The notes under the pieces are model-generated. The model did not search any database, had not been told where the DNA came from, and saw nothing but the letters and a program-made list of their open reading frames with translations. The position numbers and the translations under genes were made by a program. Shown here in pieces: positions 2,214-54,567 of a stretch of DNA of 64,000 nucleotides. The first letter of the stretch is position 1; each line of letters begins with the position of its first letter. The stretch comes from Candidatus Eremiobacteria bacterium (GTDB lineage: Bacteria; Vulcanimicrobiota; Vulcanimicrobiia; Vulcanimicrobiales; Vulcanimicrobiaceae): positions 64,001 to 128,000 of the forward strand of contig CAVTRC010000001.1 of assembly GCA_963737065.1 (NCBI GenBank). The letters are read 5' to 3'.

Positions 2214-2611
2214 AGGCGTACCAGGCCAACTATACGATTACGATGCTGTGTCATGTGCTCGACGTTTCCCCGAGCGGATACTACGCGTGGTGCAACCGAT
2301 CGCCGTCGAAGCGCCGCCAAGACGACATCGTTCTCGGCGATCAGATCGATGCGTTCTATCGGAAGTCGTATGGTATTTACGGCCGTCCGCGCTTGCATGC
2401 GGATCTTCGCGAAGCCGGCATTCGGATCTCCGGAAAGCGCCTTGCGCGGTTGATGCGCGAACGCGGAATTGTCGGCGTTTCTCGGAGGAAATCCACAGTC
2501 ACGACCATACGCGATCGGGATTCGCGTCCGGCGCCTGATCTCGTTGAGCGCAATTTCCAAGCCGATGGGCCTGACCAGCTTTGGGTCGCTGACATTACGT
2601 TGTATCTTGGA

Positions 2612-2785
2612 CCGACGCGGCGAACAACCGTCGCGAGGTGGGGATAGCACGGATATTACGTGAGGCAGCAACAGCCTGAGATGTAGATGTCGCACCCCAC
2701 TGCATTTTCAGCGCCGCAGGAGATCGGACGATAGCAAAGACGTTGCTCATCGAGCGAAGAGTCTGGATTTACAAGGCTGATCCGC
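2612..2785 (+). ncRNA. Putative bridge RNA of IS110 #1 (ends approximate)
   Basis: Non-coding left end with a 5' hairpin and two internal-loop modules. Target guides are ATATTACGT (2653-2661) and GATGTAG (2680-2686). Donor guides are ACGATAGC (2728-2735) and TTACAAG (2769-2775). Confidence 0.82.
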
Positions 2786-2821
2786 GGGTGGCGCGATTTC
2801 GATTTGAAATGTGGAGGCGCT

Positions 2822-3805
2822 GTGAAATTCATCGGGATTGATGTCTCTCGTGATAAGCTCGACTGCGCGGTAGTCGACGACTGTGGAACCGTTATTCAAC
2901 GATCGCGAGCATTTAAGAATAGCGCTGATGGCGTCGATGCGCTCCTGAAGTGGGTCGGAAAAATCGCCAGTAAGGGGCACGCGCGGTTTGTCATCGAGGC
3001 AACGGCAGCCTATCACGAGATGGCCTCACTGCGCCTTGCGAAGACCGGTGAATTCGTCGCAATCGTGAACCCATTTCACGTGCGTTCTTTAGCGCGCGGG
3101 CTAGCCATGCTCAGTAAGAGTGACGCGATTGATGCGCTCGTCCTTGCGCAATATGGGCGTCTTGCAAAGCTGCGCCGATGGGTACCGCCAGCTGCGCAGC
3201 TTGTTGATATTCAGGCTCTTTTGCTGCGGCTCGATGCGATTGAATCAGACCTCTTGCGTGAGCAGAATCGTCGCGAGCAGGCTGCAGCCAGAGAATCCGC
3301 GACGCTTGTGATTGGCTCGATTGACGCGAGTATCAAATTCCTAAAGCGTCAGCGGAAAAGCATCGAATTCGCGATCAGCAAATCGATTGAAACCGCTCCG
3401 GGTATCGCGGATGACGTCGAGCGCTTACGCTCGATCCCCGGCGTGGGCGAAAAGACAGCAAACCGCATGGCGACCATGCTGCGTATGCACGACTTTAAGT
3501 CGGCGCGTGAAGTGGCCGCCTTCTGCGGCCTCGTTCCGGTCGAGCATAAATCCGGAACGAGCGTCTATCGCAAGCCGCGACTCTCGAAGGCCGGCAACCC
3601 AAGAATGCGGGCGGCTCTATACATGGTTGCAGTCGTCGCCATGCGGTTGAACCCCGACGTCAAGGCGCTTTACGATCGACTCGTAGGACGCGGTAAAGCA
3701 AAAATGGCGGCTCTCGGTGCGTGCATGCGTAAGATCGTTCAGATATGTTTCGGCGTACTGAAGTCGGGAAAAACGTACGCCCCGCAGGCTGTTGTTAGAG
3801 CTTGA
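2822..3805 (+). CDS. IS110 DEDD recombinase/transposase
   Basis: GIDVS, IEAT and KSDAIDA (DEDD RuvC-like), SIPGVG, PVEHKSG (catalytic Ser region), SKAGN. GGAGG RBS precedes GTG 2822. Confidence 0.95.
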   Translation: MKFIGIDVSRDKLDCAVVDDCGTVIQRSRAFKNSADGVDALLKWVGKIASKGHARFVIEATAAYHEMASLRLAKTGEFVAIVNPFHVRSLARGLAMLSKSDAIDALVLAQYGRLAKLRRWVPPAAQLVDIQALLLRLDAIESDLLREQNRREQAAARESATLVIGSIDASIKFLKRQRKSIEFAISKSIETAPGIADDVERLRSIPGVGEKTANRMATMLRMHDFKSAREVAAFCGLVPVEHKSGTSVYRKPRLSKAGNPRMRAALYMVAVVAMRLNPDVKALYDRLVGRGKAKMAALGACMRKIVQICFGVLKSGKTYAPQAVVRA

Positions 3806-6114: not shown

Positions 6115-6237
6115 GCAACCGAACCCCGCTCGGTAGATGCACGTGGCTTGCGAAGTCGACGTTGAAAATGGAGGCTTGATACATCCTGTTGTTGACGCCG
6201 GGTGAAAAGTGACCCACTTTGCTAGGGGATCGCCGGT

Positions 6238-8050
<1,813 letters not shown>

Positions 8051-8100
8051 CGCGACCTTGCGTTCGCGTTAGATCAGGTGGAACGGCTTAGTCAACTCTG

Positions 8101-9174
8101 TTAGGCGGCGACTTCAATACTATTCTGACTATTGCGCGCAAGTCGGTCTTGCATCGGTTGTAACCGATAAAACACAACCGTTGCCAGCTGCCGTTTGTGA
8201 GAACGCATCGCAGCTCGATGCGTCTTGCCCTCAGCTCGCTTACGCGCATAATAGAGTTGGCCCGGATGATTGCGCGTGCGGTTTTGGACCAACGCAATAA
8301 CATGGAGTAATCGATTGAGCTGACGATCACCACCGGTGTTGACACGGACGCTCGCGTTGCGACCGCTCGAACACGGAACGGGCGCCGCCCCGGCGCGCAT
8401 CGCGAAGCTCGCGGCATTGCGATACATGCAAAGATTGCCGGCATGTCCAATGATCCCGGCAGCAACGACAATGGAAACGCCTCGAAGCTCCAGCAATTCG
8501 GGCGCAAGGCGCTTAACGAAAGGGCGCAGTTGGCGTTCCAGCTGATTCACTGCAGCATTGAGCCGGCGGATTTCCGAGATCGCCTCGTCGACCTCATCAG
8601 CAAGCGCATCACCGGTATAGCTCTTACCGCGATGACCCGTTAGAAGATCTGCTGCATTCTGCAATGCAATTTCGGTGGTCATGTTCGAGGGCAGCGGTCC
8701 AATCGCCAGCCGCAATGCGGCATCCCGCAGCCGATTTACAGCCTCCGTCCGCTGTCGCACAAGTCGATCGCGGCGATCATAACGTAACCGGACTGCTTCC
8801 TGTTCATCCAGACGTTCGCAACGCCGCAAGCGATCGGATTCGCGCAGAACTGCTTCGGCAATCGCTCGAGCGTCGAGTGGATCGGATTTTCCTCTTCGGC
8901 TTGCGTGTTTGCGGTGACGTTTAGTGAACGAACCTGGAACCTCGTATACGACGGCGTTGCTTTTCAGCAGAGCATCGGCGAAGCCACGTCCGAACGAACC
9001 ACTTCCCTCAAGACCCCATTCAACGGTGCCAAACGACCGTGCTCTTTCGATCGCAGTCGCATACCCTGCGGCGTTCGTTGCAATGGTGATCTCCGAGAGC
9101 GCTTTCCCAACTCCATCAACGAATACGATGGTGTGAGAATCCTTGTGACAATCGACGCCCGCAACGACGCGCAT
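8101..9174 (-). CDS. IS110 DEDD recombinase/transposase
   Basis: AGVDCHK, GLEGSG, GKSDPLDA, PVPCSSG, GGDRQLN. AAGGAG RBS. Confidence 0.95.
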   Translation of the reverse strand: MRVVAGVDCHKDSHTIVFVDGVGKALSEITIATNAAGYATAIERARSFGTVEWGLEGSGSFGRGFADALLKSNAVVYEVPGSFTKRHRKHASRRGKSDPLDARAIAEAVLRESDRLRRCERLDEQEAVRLRYDRRDRLVRQRTEAVNRLRDAALRLAIGPLPSNMTTEIALQNAADLLTGHRGKSYTGDALADEVDEAISEIRRLNAAVNQLERQLRPFVKRLAPELLELRGVSIVVAAGIIGHAGNLCMYRNAASFAMRAGAAPVPCSSGRNASVRVNTGGDRQLNRLLHVIALVQNRTRNHPGQLYYARKRAEGKTHRAAMRSHKRQLATVVFYRLQPMQDRLARNSQNSIEVAA

Positions 9175-9194
9175 GCGTTCTCCTTTTATGCGAG

Positions 9195-9335
9195 GTTACC
9201 GCAGACGTCGGCGATCCCTTATTGAGCATTTGCACTCGGCTTACCAGCCAAAACGCGCTGCGGAAAAGACGCGCCTGCCGGCCATTCCACCCCAAGTCAA
9301 TCCGACTGTCAATTTTGGAGCCAGAGCAGACGCAC
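9195..9335 (-). ncRNA. Putative bridge RNA of IS110 #2 (ends approximate)
   Basis: Minus-strand guides AAAATTGAC (9308-9316) and GGGGTGG (9287-9293) flank an AGTC/GACT hairpin and match the target. TAAGCCG (9237-9243) and ATAAGG (9217-9222) flank a second hairpin and match the donor junction. Confidence 0.75.
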
Positions 9336-9476
9336 CCTAATCATACATATAAGGGTCAATTTTCAACCGGCGGGGTGGGTCAACTTTACTCCGGCGCTAA
9401 CACTGTCCTTTTCTTAGTTTCGCCGCGATTCGAATTTCGAAAGAGACAGATTGCGCGAATATTGCCATTGTGCAGT

Positions 9477-9700
9477 TGGAGTTGATCGATTATCGTGGAT
9501 AGTTTTTTGATCGGAGCCTACGCAGCATGTTCCCGCTCGAAGTCGATTGGCCAGAGATAGTTGAGTCGCGAGTGCGCACGGTGCGCGTTGTACCACGATT
9601 CAATGAACGTGAAGATCGCTATACGAGCCTCACTCTGCGCTTTGAATCGCCGCCTTGCGAGCAGCTCGGCATTCGAGCGTGGCAAAGAAACTCTCGCACG
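9477..9700 (-). pseudogene. IS3 OrfB 3' fragment with degenerate terminal repeat
   Basis: ELLARRRFKAQSEARIAIFTFIESWYNAHRAHSRLNY resembles the OrfB C-terminus at ~4130-4280. TGGAGTTGA at 9477 resembles the IS3 inverted repeat. Confidence 0.75.
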
Positions 9701-9754
9701 TCGCAGTACCTTAGGATTCGGCGGACATCGTTTCAACGTTCAAGGATAACACCG

Positions 9755-9870
9755 CGTGGACGAATATCAGCGCAAACGCCTCGCATGGATTCGCTTTTTG
9801 AGCAGTGGAACGATGCTGGAAAGGTCTGCCTGAAATGCGGAATCTCTCCCCCGACGCTGCGTAAATGTCT
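9755..9870 (+). pseudogene. Transposase N-terminal HTH remnant (IS481-like)
   Basis: Reads MDEYQRKRLAWIRF / EQWNDAGKVCLKCGISPPTLRK across a frameshift, then is truncated. Confidence 0.55.
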
Positions 9871-10190
9871 GGGAGCACCATAAGGTCCATGGGATCACCA
9901 GCTGTGCCAAGGCATTCGGCCGCTCGAGCAACTCTGGCGTCGTCGATTCCGATAGGGTAACATCGTAACCGGCCACCGCTTCGTCCTCTCGGTTAAGAAG
10001 TTCGTCGTAAAGCAAATGTTCCGAACCGAAACGCTGGCTCCTCGTCTTTACAGCATTTTAAGAGACGTCATCACTGGGCACAGTACGTCGGAATTCGAGC
10101 TAACAATATTGACGTAGAACGACCAGCAGGATTCGACACGGCTTAAACGAGCGATCCTAAATGGCTTCGTAATTCCAGGAGGATCCGTAT

Positions 10191-51209: not shown

Positions 51210-51286
51210 GGGCCATTAGCTCAGCTGGTTAGAGCGCATGCTTGATAAGCATGAGGTCCCTGGTTCGATCCCAGGATGGCCCACCA
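51210..51286 (+). tRNA. tRNA-Ile (GAT)
   Basis: Cloverleaf with anticodon arm CATGC-TTGATAA-GCATG, GGTTCGATCC T-loop and encoded CCA. Confidence 0.97.
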
Positions 51287-51292
51287 TAGTGG

Positions 51293-51325
51293 AAACGCCT
51301 GCATGTCGCAGGCGTTTTGTTGTTT
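51293..51325 (+). terminator. Intrinsic terminator after tRNA-Ile
   Basis: AAACGCCTGC-ATGTC-GCAGGCGTTTTGTTGTTTT. Confidence 0.75.
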
Positions 51326-51371
51326 TCCGCCGCCGCACAGCACGCCGGCGTTGCGCGTCCCGCGCAGTAAC

Positions 51372-52064
51372 TCAGATGCGCACGGAAAATGTCCATTGGC
51401 CGTATTCGTCCTGCGGATATTTTCCGTAAATGTCGTATGCGCGCCAGAGGCATGTGAACGTTTGCACGCCCGGCTTGATGCTGAATTGGAAGCGATTGAT
51501 TTCCGCGGCGATGTCGTTTGGAAATAGAATGTGGTTGTATTGCGCTGCGATAACGTGGTAATACACGCCGTTGACCGTGCGGCCTTCGGGATGGCCCGGT
51601 CGCAACGCATTGTACGCCGAATCCTGTGGAACGAGGAATTCGAATAATAACGCGGGCGTCAGTTTATCGCCTTCGTTCGCTAAACTCACAACGACCATCG
51701 CGTTGATCCAATCGCGACGATCCGACGGGTACTTGAATTCGGACCACTGCGTTGCTCGAAATCTCGGCATACGAAGCGCGTCGTCGATCATCCGGCGGTT
51801 ATTGTTTAGGTCTCGTTTAAGCAAACCCAACGAACGACGCGCCACGTAGATCTGATAGGCAACCGCAATGAGCGTAAGCACCGCAATAGCTAGCGCCCAC
51901 GTCGCAATCGTTACCGCCGTGTGCGCGATCGGCTCATGGCTAACGATATTGACGGGTATTGCCTGCTGCGTTCGCTCGATGATGACATGCTGCACGAGCG
52001 GTGAATGGTGTACGGCCGGGTGCTGAACTCGATGCACCGCATGATGCGCGACAAGGTGCCTCAT
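51372..52064 (-). CDS. Hypothetical single-TM protein
   Basis: 230-aa ORF with His-rich N-terminus and one TM. Start uncertain. Confidence 0.6.
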   Translation of the reverse strand: MRHLVAHHAVHRVQHPAVHHSPLVQHVIIERTQQAIPVNIVSHEPIAHTAVTIATWALAIAVLTLIAVAYQIYVARRSLGLLKRDLNNNRRMIDDALRMPRFRATQWSEFKYPSDRRDWINAMVVVSLANEGDKLTPALLFEFLVPQDSAYNALRPGHPEGRTVNGVYYHVIAAQYNHILFPNDIAAEINRFQFSIKPGVQTFTCLWRAYDIYGKYPQDEYGQWTFSVRI

Positions 52065-52116
52065 TGCTTAAGCGCGTCCATCATCATTCTCATTCCCATC
52101 TGCGACGCAAAACAAC

Positions 52117-52884
52117 CTAGCCATTCAACGATTGGGCGGTCACGACGAGATTATCCGGCGTAACCCGGATGAGACCTTGATGCGTGCTATCTAAATCAGC
52201 GATCATGAAGAACGAAATAGCAATGAGCACCGGCAGAACGAGGTGACGGCCGAAACGCCCGGACGGCCTTCTCGTGTCAAAACCAATAAGCGCGCAGCAG
52301 AAAAGCGCGATGACGAACATCAGCGCCCATGCTTCGAACGGGATTCGATTGTCCCAGGCAGCGGCCGCGTATGCTTGTGCATCAATCAGGTCGTTCATAC
52401 CTTGCAGAACGAGTGACGTCATACTGTTCGGCCGCGTTGCGGCTTCCTGTTCAACGATCGACCACATCGTTTGTTGAAGCGACTTGCTCGTCGAGCGATT
52501 CTCGAGTAACACGGACTCCGTTCCGCCTGCATACGTTGCGATGCGCTCGCTGATATACCGGCGCAGCACGGCACGCAGCCGCGTTGCTTCATCGGGCGCG
52601 AGCAAACCCGCACGAAGATACTCGGTCCGTATCGTCTTGGCTTCTACCGCCTCGTCGTGTTTTCGCTCGTCATAGCGACCGACGGCCATCGAGAAACTAA
52701 AACCGATGATAAGCGCAAGCAGCGTGAGCGAGCTCGTCAGGACCAGGCTCAGATCTTCACGCTCGTCAGTGGTCATTGCGCCCCGCCGACGACGCAATCG
52801 CAGCCCGGTGTATGAGGCGAGCAGCATCACGACCAGCGTAAATGCGAAGAAATACCACGGTTGATCGACGAGACTCAGCGCCAT
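52117..52884 (-). CDS. DUF4239-like membrane protein
   Basis: LLALIIGFSFSMAVGRYDERK...EA..I, IADLD. Confidence 0.8.
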   Translation of the reverse strand: MALSLVDQPWYFFAFTLVVMLLASYTGLRLRRRRGAMTTDEREDLSLVLTSSLTLLALIIGFSFSMAVGRYDERKHDEAVEAKTIRTEYLRAGLLAPDEATRLRAVLRRYISERIATYAGGTESVLLENRSTSKSLQQTMWSIVEQEAATRPNSMTSLVLQGMNDLIDAQAYAAAAWDNRIPFEAWALMFVIALFCCALIGFDTRRPSGRFGRHLVLPVLIAISFFMIADLDSTHQGLIRVTPDNLVVTAQSLNG

Positions 52885-53006
52885 AGCACGATCTTCGCAT
52901 CCGCAGCGCTGCGACGGCTATCCCGTCCGTGCAAGAAATCGCGAGGCGTGCAAGAACGTTGCACGCCTCGTCGACACGGAAGCACCCACGGGTAACGCGC
53001 TACGCG

Positions 53007-53801
53007 CTAGTCGTCATATCCGAGCGAACGACCGAATAACGTCCCGAGCGGCGGTTTTGTATCGAAATGGAATGCGTCAAACGTGTATTCGGCGCTGATG
53101 GTCGAATATTGGCTGAAGACGCGGTACGTGTACTCCCAGTTCACTTGCCGAATCACATTGTAGCCCTCGACATTTCCAACTTCGATCGTGTAGTCGATCA
53201 GTCTCTGTCCGCGTTTCCCGGAATAGTCGTAGAGAAACGTTAGCCACTGGCTTACGACCGCGCGTCGCATCGCAAACGTCTTGCGGTCGATCCAAATCGC
53301 TTTGAGCGCGGGGCGATCTCCCGGCGCGTCGGCGATGATCAAGTGCGCCGCCGGCTTTCCGTCAACGACGTCATCGCCCTGGTCGACGCATTCATGGCGC
53401 GAGTTGCGCGTATCGGCGATGACCGGCAGCGCCGTGCCGGAGGACATTTCGTCCGACGAGAGCCACGATGCGCGGTTGGGGCCGTACGGACCGAGCACCG
53501 GCGGTCCCGGTTCGAGTACGCGGCTGACGAACGGATGCACCCACCGGTCGTCGTCGACGTAGGCAAGGCCATCGTCGCGATAGGTGACATTGGCACTCGC
53601 AAACTCATAGCGATGACCGTCTTGCGTAATGTGAATCGATTCCGCATAGCTAATATACGGGGCGTGAGGAGCGGCTGCGTTGCGCTGCAAAGCCGAGTAG
53701 AGCAGTTCCCAGCACGGATCGAAGTTCGCTGCACGAGCAACGGCCGTGCAGCAGAGAAAAAGAAGTGCGGCGGCGAGGCCGCCGATCGACCGCATCGTCA
53801 T
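53007..53801 (-). CDS. Hypothetical secreted protein
   Basis: Signal peptide. GPPVLGPY and IWIDRKT resemble motifs in 27761-28654. Confidence 0.72.
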   Translation of the reverse strand: MTMRSIGGLAAALLFLCCTAVARAANFDPCWELLYSALQRNAAAPHAPYISYAESIHITQDGHRYEFASANVTYRDDGLAYVDDDRWVHPFVSRVLEPGPPVLGPYGPNRASWLSSDEMSSGTALPVIADTRNSRHECVDQGDDVVDGKPAAHLIIADAPGDRPALKAIWIDRKTFAMRRAVVSQWLTFLYDYSGKRGQRLIDYTIEVGNVEGYNVIRQVNWEYTYRVFSQYSTISAEYTFDAFHFDTKPPLGTLFGRSLGYDD

Positions 53802-53917
53802 CGGAAGTACCTCTAAGGCTTTCTATCGTCTCTCAACCGCGGCCATGTGACAATACTCTCCGATCACATATGAAAGGGTCCATTCGACCCGGCACGAATT
53901 CCGGGTGGCTCTTTCTC

Positions 53918-53990
53918 GGGGACGTAGCTCAGCTGGTAGAGCGCCTGCTTTGCAAGCAGGATGTCAGGGGTTCGAGTCCCCTCGTCTCCA
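53918..53990 (+). tRNA. tRNA-Ala (TGC), CCA not encoded
   Basis: GGGGACG/CGTCTCC acceptor with G3:U70 and anticodon arm CCTGC-TTTGCAA-GCAGG. Confidence 0.96.
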
Positions 53991-54000
53991 CATCGGCTTT

Positions 54001-54073
54001 GGGGGCATAGCTCAGCTGGTAGAGCATCACGCTGGCAGCGTGAGGGTCAGGAGTTCGAGTCTCCTTGCCTCCA
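54001..54073 (+). tRNA. tRNA-Ala (GGC), CCA not encoded
   Basis: GGGGGCA/TGCCTCC acceptor and anticodon arm TCACG-CTGGCAG-CGTGA. Confidence 0.96.
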
Positions 54074-54143
54074 CATTCCGTCATACTCGAATGCGAACCG
54101 GAAGCGATCCGGCGGCGTTTGCGCGCCGTGCTACAATGCCCGA

Positions 54144-54533
54144 GCGAAGTACGCCGGGCGATCGCGCTTGTTCCGCATCGCGGGATTGGTGAGGAAAGTC
54201 CGGGCTTCACAGGGCAAGGTGCAGGATAACGTCCTGTCGGCGCAAGTCGAAGGAAAGTGCCACAGAAACATACCGCCCCAACATCTGCGACGCAGCTTGC
54301 AGGTGATGAGGCAAGGGTGAAATCGTGAGGTAAGAGCTCACGGAGTTCCACGGTGACGTGGACTCGGGTAAACCCCACCTGAAGCAAGATCGCTCGATGC
54401 GCACCGCAAGGTGCCGGATTGCCCGTCCGTACGAGCCACATCGCATCGAGGTGCGCGGTAACGCGTGCCCCAGAGGGATGGTCGCCGCCGGTGGTAACAC
54501 CGGTACAGAATCCGGCTTATAGGCGTACTTCGC
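54144..54533 (+). ncRNA. rnpB: RNase P RNA
   Basis: GAGGAAAGTCCGGGC, AGTGCCACAGAAA and ACAGAATCCGGCTTA conserved regions. P1 stem GCGAAGTACGCC/GGCGTACTTCGC. TGcTACAAT promoter at 54129-54137. Confidence 0.97.
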
Positions 54534-54567
54534 AGTAGTTCAGCGCGCGGTCGTACAACGTTGAACT

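Follow-up and report, generated by a model that had tools for sequence, protein, structure and literature searches.

Bridge RNAs have been known since 2024. Some insertion sequences (IS) reportedly aim at other mobile elements: IS1383, of the IS110 group, is said, in the work of Muller, Lauf and Herrmann from 2001, to integrate into the inverted repeats of IS1384, and IS4321 and IS5075 reportedly target the repeats of the Tn21 family. Here we describe a locus in a stretch of 64,000 nucleotides (nt) from a Candidatus Eremiobacteria bacterium (contig CAVTRC010000001.1, positions 64,001 to 128,000 of the forward strand; this whole stretch is called the window, and positions refer to it unless a contig is named). 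An IS110-family element of 1.27 kb, at 9353-8081 on the minus strand, splits L2, the inner repeat of the left end of an IS21-family element, and its upstream region encodes a predicted bridge RNA with matches both to that repeat and to the element's own ends. As with IS1383, a member of the IS110 group is aimed at the terminal repeats of another IS, the host IS and the bacterium being different; and, as with IS4321 and IS5075, an IS with a DEDD transposase has its target at that end of a foreign mobile element to which the latter's transposase binds. From the comparisons below we consider it very probable that this is an active or recently active IS110-family element working like IS621.

The available excerpts of PMC11208160 and PMC11208158 describe IS621 as having a DEDD RuvC-like domain and a serine-bearing Tnp domain, an upstream non-coding RNA and a promoter split between its ends, all of which have counterparts here. 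Two further likenesses lie in the RNA: the 5' sides of its loops share the sense of the left target and the left donor, with 3' sides antisense to the right target and the right donor, the layout described for IS621, where the former pair with the bottom strand and the latter with the top strand (PMC11208160, in excerpt); and additional 3' bases are able to pair with the partner DNA after exchange, in the manner of a handshake. The window element differs from IS621, as far as those excerpts describe it, in that its RNA would be about 135 nt long without room for a 5' stem-loop, against 177 nt (PMC11208158); in that its core is probably TC in the donor and CC in the target rather than CT, with left guides that do not extend over the entire core; and in that its target is another IS rather than a repetitive extragenic palindromic (REP) sequence, the two proteins being similar only at E=2.4e-6. 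Another departure is that target and donor of this clade often have different first core bases, the right donor guide matching the target version. Elements of the IS1111 group have a downstream non-coding region and subterminal inverted repeats (PMC11187229, in excerpt), whereas the non-coding region of the window element lies upstream, and no inverted repeats joining its ends were found among the 25 of 40 repeat pairs listed. Literature searches, with the supplementary tables of PMC11208160 outside their scope, turned up no published IS110 element that targets IS21 ends or IS3 genes, and the main text of the preprint 10.64898/2026.08.14.744561 makes no mention of IS21. The element is a new example of the known bridge-RNA mechanism of IS110 elements, not a new kind of system.

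An IS110-family element in the inner repeat of an IS21 end

The limits of the element were set by empty IS21 sites and by the register in which the right and left ends of its homologues align, and its junctions read ...AAAATTGACCC/TTATATG on the left and ...TAAGCCGTTCC/ACCTG on the right. A reading made earlier from the letters of the window (the sequence-only reading) had placed it at 8080-9352 on the same strand, and all the items listed there lie within one base of ours. Only CC is duplicated at the junctions, there is no long target duplication, and the same site is used in three copies. The sole open reading frame (ORF) of the element, at 8101-9174 on the minus strand, encodes a transposase (recombinase) of 357 amino acids with a DEDD RuvC-like domain and a Tnp domain. 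Its Pfam matches, PF01548 (DEDD_Tnp_IS110; 3.6e-25) in the N-terminal part and PF02371 (2.4e-11) in the C-terminal part, are both past the cut-offs and lie in the order that the IS110 family requires, and it scores 159.5 bits (cut-off 140) against the NCBIfam equivalog NF033542, 'IS110 family RNA-guided transposase'. The catalytic residues D8, E56, D98, D101 and S270 show no variation across 14 aligned homologues. The only solved relative detectable by sequence is the IS621 transposase (8wt6, E=2.4e-6); in that alignment the E and D positions fall on E and D residues of the chain and S270 on the serine of an ESG motif, and the five correspond to D11, E60, D102, D105 and S241, the residues named in the available text of PMC11208158. 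The earlier description of this as a divergent IS110 clade is a fair one, given that the top match among 1381 from plasmid tblastn has 38% identity, with no named close relative, and that IS621 is recognisable only at the E value just given. The non-coding region upstream of the gene measures 179 nt (9353-9175) and is placed as in the IS110 group, while the right end is short, at about 20 nt, with only 18 nt (8100-8083) from the stop codon to the core.

The repeat carried twice by each end of an IS21-family element is the repeat bound by IstA. The host element spans 6190-9402 on the minus strand, 1.94 kb without its insert, between terminal inverted repeats (I1/I2), and carries istA at 8050-7025 (NF033546, 297.5 bits; a helix-turn-helix (HTH) and an rve domain) followed on its 3' side by istB at 7032-6238 (NF038214, 295.6 bits; AAA+), both on the minus strand. 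Each end consists of two direct repeats, for which we use the names L1/L2 and R1/R2 given in the available text of PMC10122671, and both repeats of both ends contain TGACCCAC (repeat families D2, I1 and I2), the motif that the sequence-only reading had seen at both ends. The outer repeat L1 was placed at 9374-9402 by repeat search, junction reading and comparison with relatives; the left part of L2 lies at 9354-9373 and its remainder, CACCTG, past the insert at 8080-8075. The two repeats of the right end, located by repeat search at 6190-6256, are unoccupied.

That removal of the element restores an IS21 repeat, as had been claimed, is borne out by uninterrupted relatives. A DNA search with the IS21 body covered 200 further genomes belonging to the same family and gave a match in 51, and the left ends that could be read, in 15 other genomes, are all empty at the predicted point (15/15, or 13/13 without L013 in G051 and L030 in G028, genomes flagged as unpublished); one further locus, cut by a contig end, falls outside these 15. 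Ten of the empty ends are exactly AAAATTGACCCACCTG and five carry one or two substitutions. The end repeats are nearly the same in these relatives, which are only 67-77% identical overall.

The source genome (3.08 Mb in two contigs, C1 and C2) contains no unoccupied IS21 left end. It holds a second full copy of the IS110 element at C1:1245646-1246918, differing from the window copy at 2 of 1273 positions (99.8% identity), together with a copy at C2:574427 whose 5' part is intact, a partial copy where C1 begins, a copy at C1:2192756 that is truncated on its 5' side and has the same right junction as the window copy, and one 90% remnant. All three intact left junctions lie in left-end repeats of IS21 elements, the window copy in L2, the copy at C1:1245646 in L2 of a second IS21, and the copy at C2:574427 in L1 of an orphan IS21 end. 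Since the IS21 hosts of the two full copies are 86% identical, the insertions are independent. The regions C1:1243500-1247100 and C1:2192300-2195600 are, in turn, 98.5% identical over 2553 nt across both IS110 and IS21 parts, so one IS110/IS21 composite has probably been duplicated as a unit. The genome has five exact occurrences of the 10-mer AAAATTGAC+C; three are left junctions of the element, and the two unoccupied sites lack a full match to the right target.

Some details of these loci may be recorded here. Contig C1 begins inside a copy of the element (C1:1-1050), and here, as in the copy at C2:574427-575655, the end of another repeat (…TGTGTAAACCGAGAC…) interrupts the element near its position 1229, the two joints differing slightly. 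In the window, the IS21 is flanked by a 4-bp duplication, ACAG, and sits in the remnant of an rve-type (IS3-like) transposase gene at 9403-9900 on the minus strand (rve_2 and rve_3 matches), the IS elements at this locus being nested in three layers.

The predicted bridge RNA and its guides

Upstream regions for comparison came from two sources: other genomes of the family, of which 17 out of 347 yielded homologues (41-64% protein identity), and metagenome contigs, in which 80 homologue loci were kept, 26 of them at 48-66% identity. A scan of genome contigs with the single transposase protein gave only two loci, and widening the search from family to order brought in no further genomes. The RNA alignment comprises the 29 distinct upstream regions that align well. 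In the window the predicted RNA occupies 9333-9199 on the minus strand (about 135 nt), its 5' end being set from the -10 box described below and its 3' end from the last conserved stem. The RNAalifold consensus consists of two stem-loops, and in each of them a small hairpin is set within a large internal loop. In the target-binding stem-loop (9334-9270) the stem 9334-9320/9282-9270 encloses a hairpin at 9306-9296, and in the donor-binding stem-loop (9256-9205) the stem 9256-9247/9212-9205 encloses one at 9233-9226.

A two-hairpin RNA had been proposed by the sequence-only reading, with covariation across homologues as the check, and it withstands that check: 20 of the 26 pairs show compensatory changes. 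Helices 1 and 2 are 93-94% paired across the 29 homologues, with double changes at 13 of 16 pairs, and helices 3 and 4 are 91-92% paired, with double changes at 7 of 10. Over the alignment as a whole 92.6% of cells are paired and 113 carry double changes, against 79.0% and 32 in shuffled alignments, none of 500 of which reached the observed values; slid controls pair at 29-54%. The same reading had called the RNA compact. This is so in that it is shorter than that of IS621 and has no 5' stem-loop, for which there is no room because the -10 box ends 6 nt before stem 1; the two loop modules themselves, however, are of ordinary size.

The guide-like segments pointed out earlier around the two hairpins, AAAAUUGAC at 9316-9308, GGGGUG with GA at 9293-9286, UAAGCCG at 9243-9237 and AUAAG with GG at 9222-9216, can all be recognised in the loops of the consensus. 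The left target guide, AAAAUUGAC, has the same sense as the target's top strand and agrees at 9/9 positions with the nucleotides to the left of the insertion. The right target guide (9294-9288), continued by a core-binding GA (9287-9286) and a handshake-like AU (9285-9284), is complementary to the right junction T-TC-CACC(T). On the donor side, the left guide UAAGCCGA (9243-9236) has 7/8 positions in common with the final 8 nt of the right end (8090-8083), and the right guide AUAAG (9222-9218), with core-binding GG (9217-9216) and a following AU (9215-9214), includes a 7-mer that is complementary at 7/7 positions to the left junction, CC-CTTAT. All these segments are on the minus strand.

Matches of this kind carry more weight when they change together with the flanks, and the homologues were compared for this with the guides taken at fixed alignment columns and the flanks searched without a fixed offset. 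The left target guide matches the element's own flank at 9/9 in 11 of the 29 homologues and at 8/9 or better in 18; among 812 cross pairs 3.0% reach 8/9, some of these being elements with a common target. This match ends 1-3 nt inside the match of the right donor guide in 27/29, and the right donor guide itself fits the element's own left junction at 7/7 in 21/29. The left donor guide agrees with the closing 8 nt of its own element's right end at 6-8 of 8 positions in 25 elements, and the match of the core and right target directly abuts the right-end match in 18/25 homologues. The empty sites, the repeated independent insertions, the covariation of the RNA and the covariation of guides with flanks support the central proposal of the sequence-only reading, namely that a bridge RNA matches the IS21 end repeat and the ends of the element that encodes it. 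In the window element the core and right target fit L2 at 6/8 positions (7/8 with a G-T wobble): on the right side of L2 four of the six non-core bases pair, with one G-T wobble in addition, and the left side is matched at 9/9. The L1 repeat of most relatives, which we read as AAAATTGA-CC-CACCCC, is a perfect match, including 6/6 right-target positions.

A -35 box, TTGACT, faces outward at the right end (8090-8095, minus strand), and TTGAC stands 5' of the right-end guide match in most homologues; a -10 box, TATGAT, lies in the left end (9340-9345, minus strand), and TATAAT-like boxes are found at the same place in homologues. Counted from the sequence, the spacing between these boxes in joined right and left ends would be 17 nt, just as had been predicted, and no resident minus-strand promoter for the RNA was found in the integrated state. 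We infer a circular intermediate and a promoter rebuilt across the joined ends. In such a cycle the element would excise as a circle, the joining of right and left ends would create the sigma-70 promoter TTGACT-17-TATGAT, and from the left end this promoter would transcribe the bridge RNA, about 135 nt long. Of its two internal loops one would pair with the target and the second with the joined ends, UAAGCCG with the right end and AUAAG with GG with the left end and core, and the DEDD/Ser recombinase would exchange strands next to the 2-nt core.

Position of the core and competing explanations

While the duplicated CC makes a natural candidate for the core, the homologues suggest a slightly different register. 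All of the readable right ends (24/24) consist of a TTGAC-like motif, 8 guide-matched nucleotides, T, and then C or G; opposite this T the RNA has an invariant A, next to which stands G if the following base is C, or U if that base is G. In the window element and its relatives the core-binding GA falls in alignment columns 58-59, column 59 being the invariant A. Empty sites for three other target classes point the same way. In an IS3-like 5' region (L156/L157) the target is …CC-AC-AG… and the donor core TC, sharing only C; in an A-rich stretch of IS3 orfA (L172/L173) the target is …AA-AG-CC… and the donor core TG, sharing only G; and in an rve gene, at the codons I-E-S-F-N-G (L178), the target is …AA-TC-GT… and the donor core TC, with both bases shared. 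In each of these classes the left junction keeps the first core base of the target and the right junction that of the donor. Top-strand cleavage 3' of the core is shown for IS621 in the available part of PMC11208158, and the junction pattern fits such cutting. By this register the window core is probably one base to the left of the duplicated CC, with the target AAAATTGA-CC-CACCTG and the donor …TAAGCCGT-TC-CTTATATG…, so that a target-type core, CC, stands at the left junction (9354-9355, placed from the empty sites and the register of the right donor guide) and a donor-type core, TC, at the right junction (8081-8082, placed from the right-end register of the homologues), both read on the minus strand. 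If this register holds, the duplicated CC consists of the shared second core base and a C that happens to come next in both. The statement that the core is CC is accordingly correct for the duplicated dinucleotide, and probably one base off for the core in the mechanistic sense.

Across the clade, the bases with which the right donor guide binds the core follow the core of the target (GG with CC, GU with AC, CU with AG, GA with TC). They thereby match the product, like an extended handshake guide, and the first core base of this clade seems to behave as a handshake position matched to the product of recombination. Where the first core base differs, the opposite arrangement of junctions was seen in no copy read, among events with a known empty site; a bottom strand cut on the other side of the 2-nt core would give that arrangement in half of the progeny. 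An arrangement in which the guides abut a CC core, the left donor guide being out of register by 2 nt, was rejected on the alignment of homologue right ends and RNA columns.

The same mechanism could also operate with a matched CC core one base to the right, giving ...TTGAC-CC-ACCTG as the target and ...GCCGTT-CC-TTATATG as the donor; neither the junction strings nor the promoter change with the placement. No dinucleotide other than CC is indeed duplicated at the two junctions of the window copy, IS621 prefers a fully matched core (PMC11208160, in excerpt), and in the second full copy, which reads TTGAC-CC-C..., the left target guide is set directly against CC. This placement would nevertheless need a one-base shift in the window element alone, given the uniform build of the 24 right ends, the position of GA in columns 58-59 with its invariant A, and the empty sites of the three other classes, which keep the homology register with one shared nucleotide or with TC, and we think it unlikely. 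The junctions of the second full copy (locus C1:1245646-1246970) deserve a remark of their own: the left one has an extra C, TTGACCCC/TTATATG, and the right one, CC/GCCTG, has G for A. They may reflect either a variant IS21 target (…TTGACCCCGCCTG) with a left guide shifted by 1 nt, or a later change.

More distant explanations dispense with RNA guidance altogether. One ancestral insertion might have been copied along with its IS21, the RNA matches being by-products, and the 98.5% identity of the composite pair over 2553 nt does make at least one composite duplication probable. As a general account, however, hitch-hiking is very improbable, because IS110 copies that are 99.8% identical sit in IS21 hosts that are 86% identical, a third copy lies in the outer rather than the inner repeat, homologues with other guides are found at sites matching those guides, and the 15 IS21 relatives elsewhere are all empty. 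Still less credible is the proposal that the upstream region is merely a 5' untranslated region, or translational control element, and that the protein alone chooses the site. It can draw on the unexceptional fold of the single sequence, on the lack of an Rfam match and on the absence of any listed RNA run, whereas the loop segments, as well as the stems, change along with the flanks across the 29 homologues, and proteins that are 50-65% identical have completely different targets.

RNA guidance of the IS621 type, which we favour, has to accommodate several points that weigh against it. The inner repeat used here is an imperfect match on its right side. The left target guide pairs with the first core base only, and the left donor guide, at 7/8, does not pair with the core at all (GU facing TC), while in IS621 the core is reported, in the available excerpts, within all four pairings; here it is included in the right target and right donor guides. 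In our reading, left guides without the full core are an architectural variant and do not speak against the mechanism. The junctions of the second copy fit the model only by assuming a variant target that is unverified. The window RNA folded by itself is no more stable than shuffled sequences (z = 0.11), so this fold is uninformative and the support for the structure comes from comparison. A search of the whole window against Rfam at gathering thresholds found no matching family, and one of 9150-9420 at E values up to 10 gave nothing relevant, the sole match being a chance PreQ1 fragment. No RNA run is listed with the stretch, which appears as DNA only, in three soil-metagenome runs with contig shares of at most 0.11. 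Finally, the circle, the use of the promoter, transcription, the chemistry of exchange and the loss of IS21 left-end function are all steps that we infer.

Relatives, their targets and the fate of the host element

The nearest relatives (L073, L075, L093 and others) are 63-65% identical to the window element and have the TAAGCCG right end in common, and their target guides are different (AAAACGCCC; UGGUGG). L073 and L075 lie just upstream of an IS21-family istA that is 27% identical to that of the window (NF033546, 213.8 bits), in a host repeat with the same two-copy layout as in the window IS21. Since the nearest relatives thus occupy the repeat of a distant IS21 with different guides, IS21-end targeting is common to the subclade, the guides following the host IS; this is the covariation of guide and target whose absence, by the sequence-only reading, would have spoken against its proposal. 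Further relatives are found in or beside IS3 orfA or an IS3 5' region (L045, L047, L051, L055, L043, L095 and L074), at an A-rich stretch of IS3 orfA (L048, L050, L084 and L090), at an rve motif (L053, L062, L069, L054, L063, L068 and L079), and in or beside an IS256-type gene (L044), an ISL3 gene (L086) and a TnpB gene (L049). Targets in IS3 orfA include its HTH codons, and the A-rich stretch is a putative frameshift window. Our own grouping of the guides gives about 22 target classes, of which at least 12 lie in or next to other mobile elements and three between housekeeping genes (L052, L080 and L088).

Two of these loci show arrangements of some interest. At L045/L064 (G247:C83:80545-82591) two relatives, 55% and 50% identical to the window transposase, stand in tandem, head to tail, about 95 nt apart; and L055 (G193:C3) uses the same IS3-like 5' stretch of about 20 bp as L045, L047 and L051 in the opposite orientation, with cores 2-3 nt apart. 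The window itself contains another IS110 element at 2600-3805 on the plus strand, with an ORF of 333 amino acids at 2804-3805 (NF033542, 203 bits; 21% identical to the element studied here). Its left end, at about 2600, is inside an IS3-family orfB, after HTH_21 and at the codons L-W-V-A-D-I-T, and by sequence it represents a second, unrelated IS110 lineage that also lies inside another IS; a second copy is present at C1:1287165. Elsewhere, the window carries an ordinary group of three tRNA genes and a class A RNase P RNA (Rfam, 260 bits) at 51210-54535 on the plus strand.

With regard to the host element, IstA requires two complete repeats for integration in vitro (PMC10122671, in excerpt), and the splitting of L2 by 1.27 kb should for that reason disable the left end of the IS21. 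Of the two outcomes entertained earlier, immobilisation of the IS21 is therefore a better-founded guess than a ride upon it, although the composite may still be copied, as the 98.5%-identical pair would allow. The IS110 gene and istAB point in the same direction with 50 nt between them, and no terminator-like site was found in this gap, so read-through into istA is possible.

The preference of this clade for other IS elements and the single shared core base are the two points of note. In the four target classes with empty sites the second core base is always shared between target and donor, and the first differs in three. It is conceivable, and we put it forward tentatively, that the window element belongs to a clade that is largely parasitic on other transposons, with guides tuned to host sequences that are hard to change, that would provide a natural check on IS elements and for which one shared core nucleotide is enough. 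If this is true, the clade would act as a brake on IS expansion, because insertion would disable the host transposon, and sharing of one base would relax the core constraint for engineered bridge recombinases, to whose engineering the clade also offers compact RNAs and non-CT cores. The locus gives a natural example of the RNA-guided targeting of one transposon by another, with empty sites and with retuned guides in sister lineages, and insertion into the IstA-binding repeat makes it a simple, testable case of conflict between transposons.

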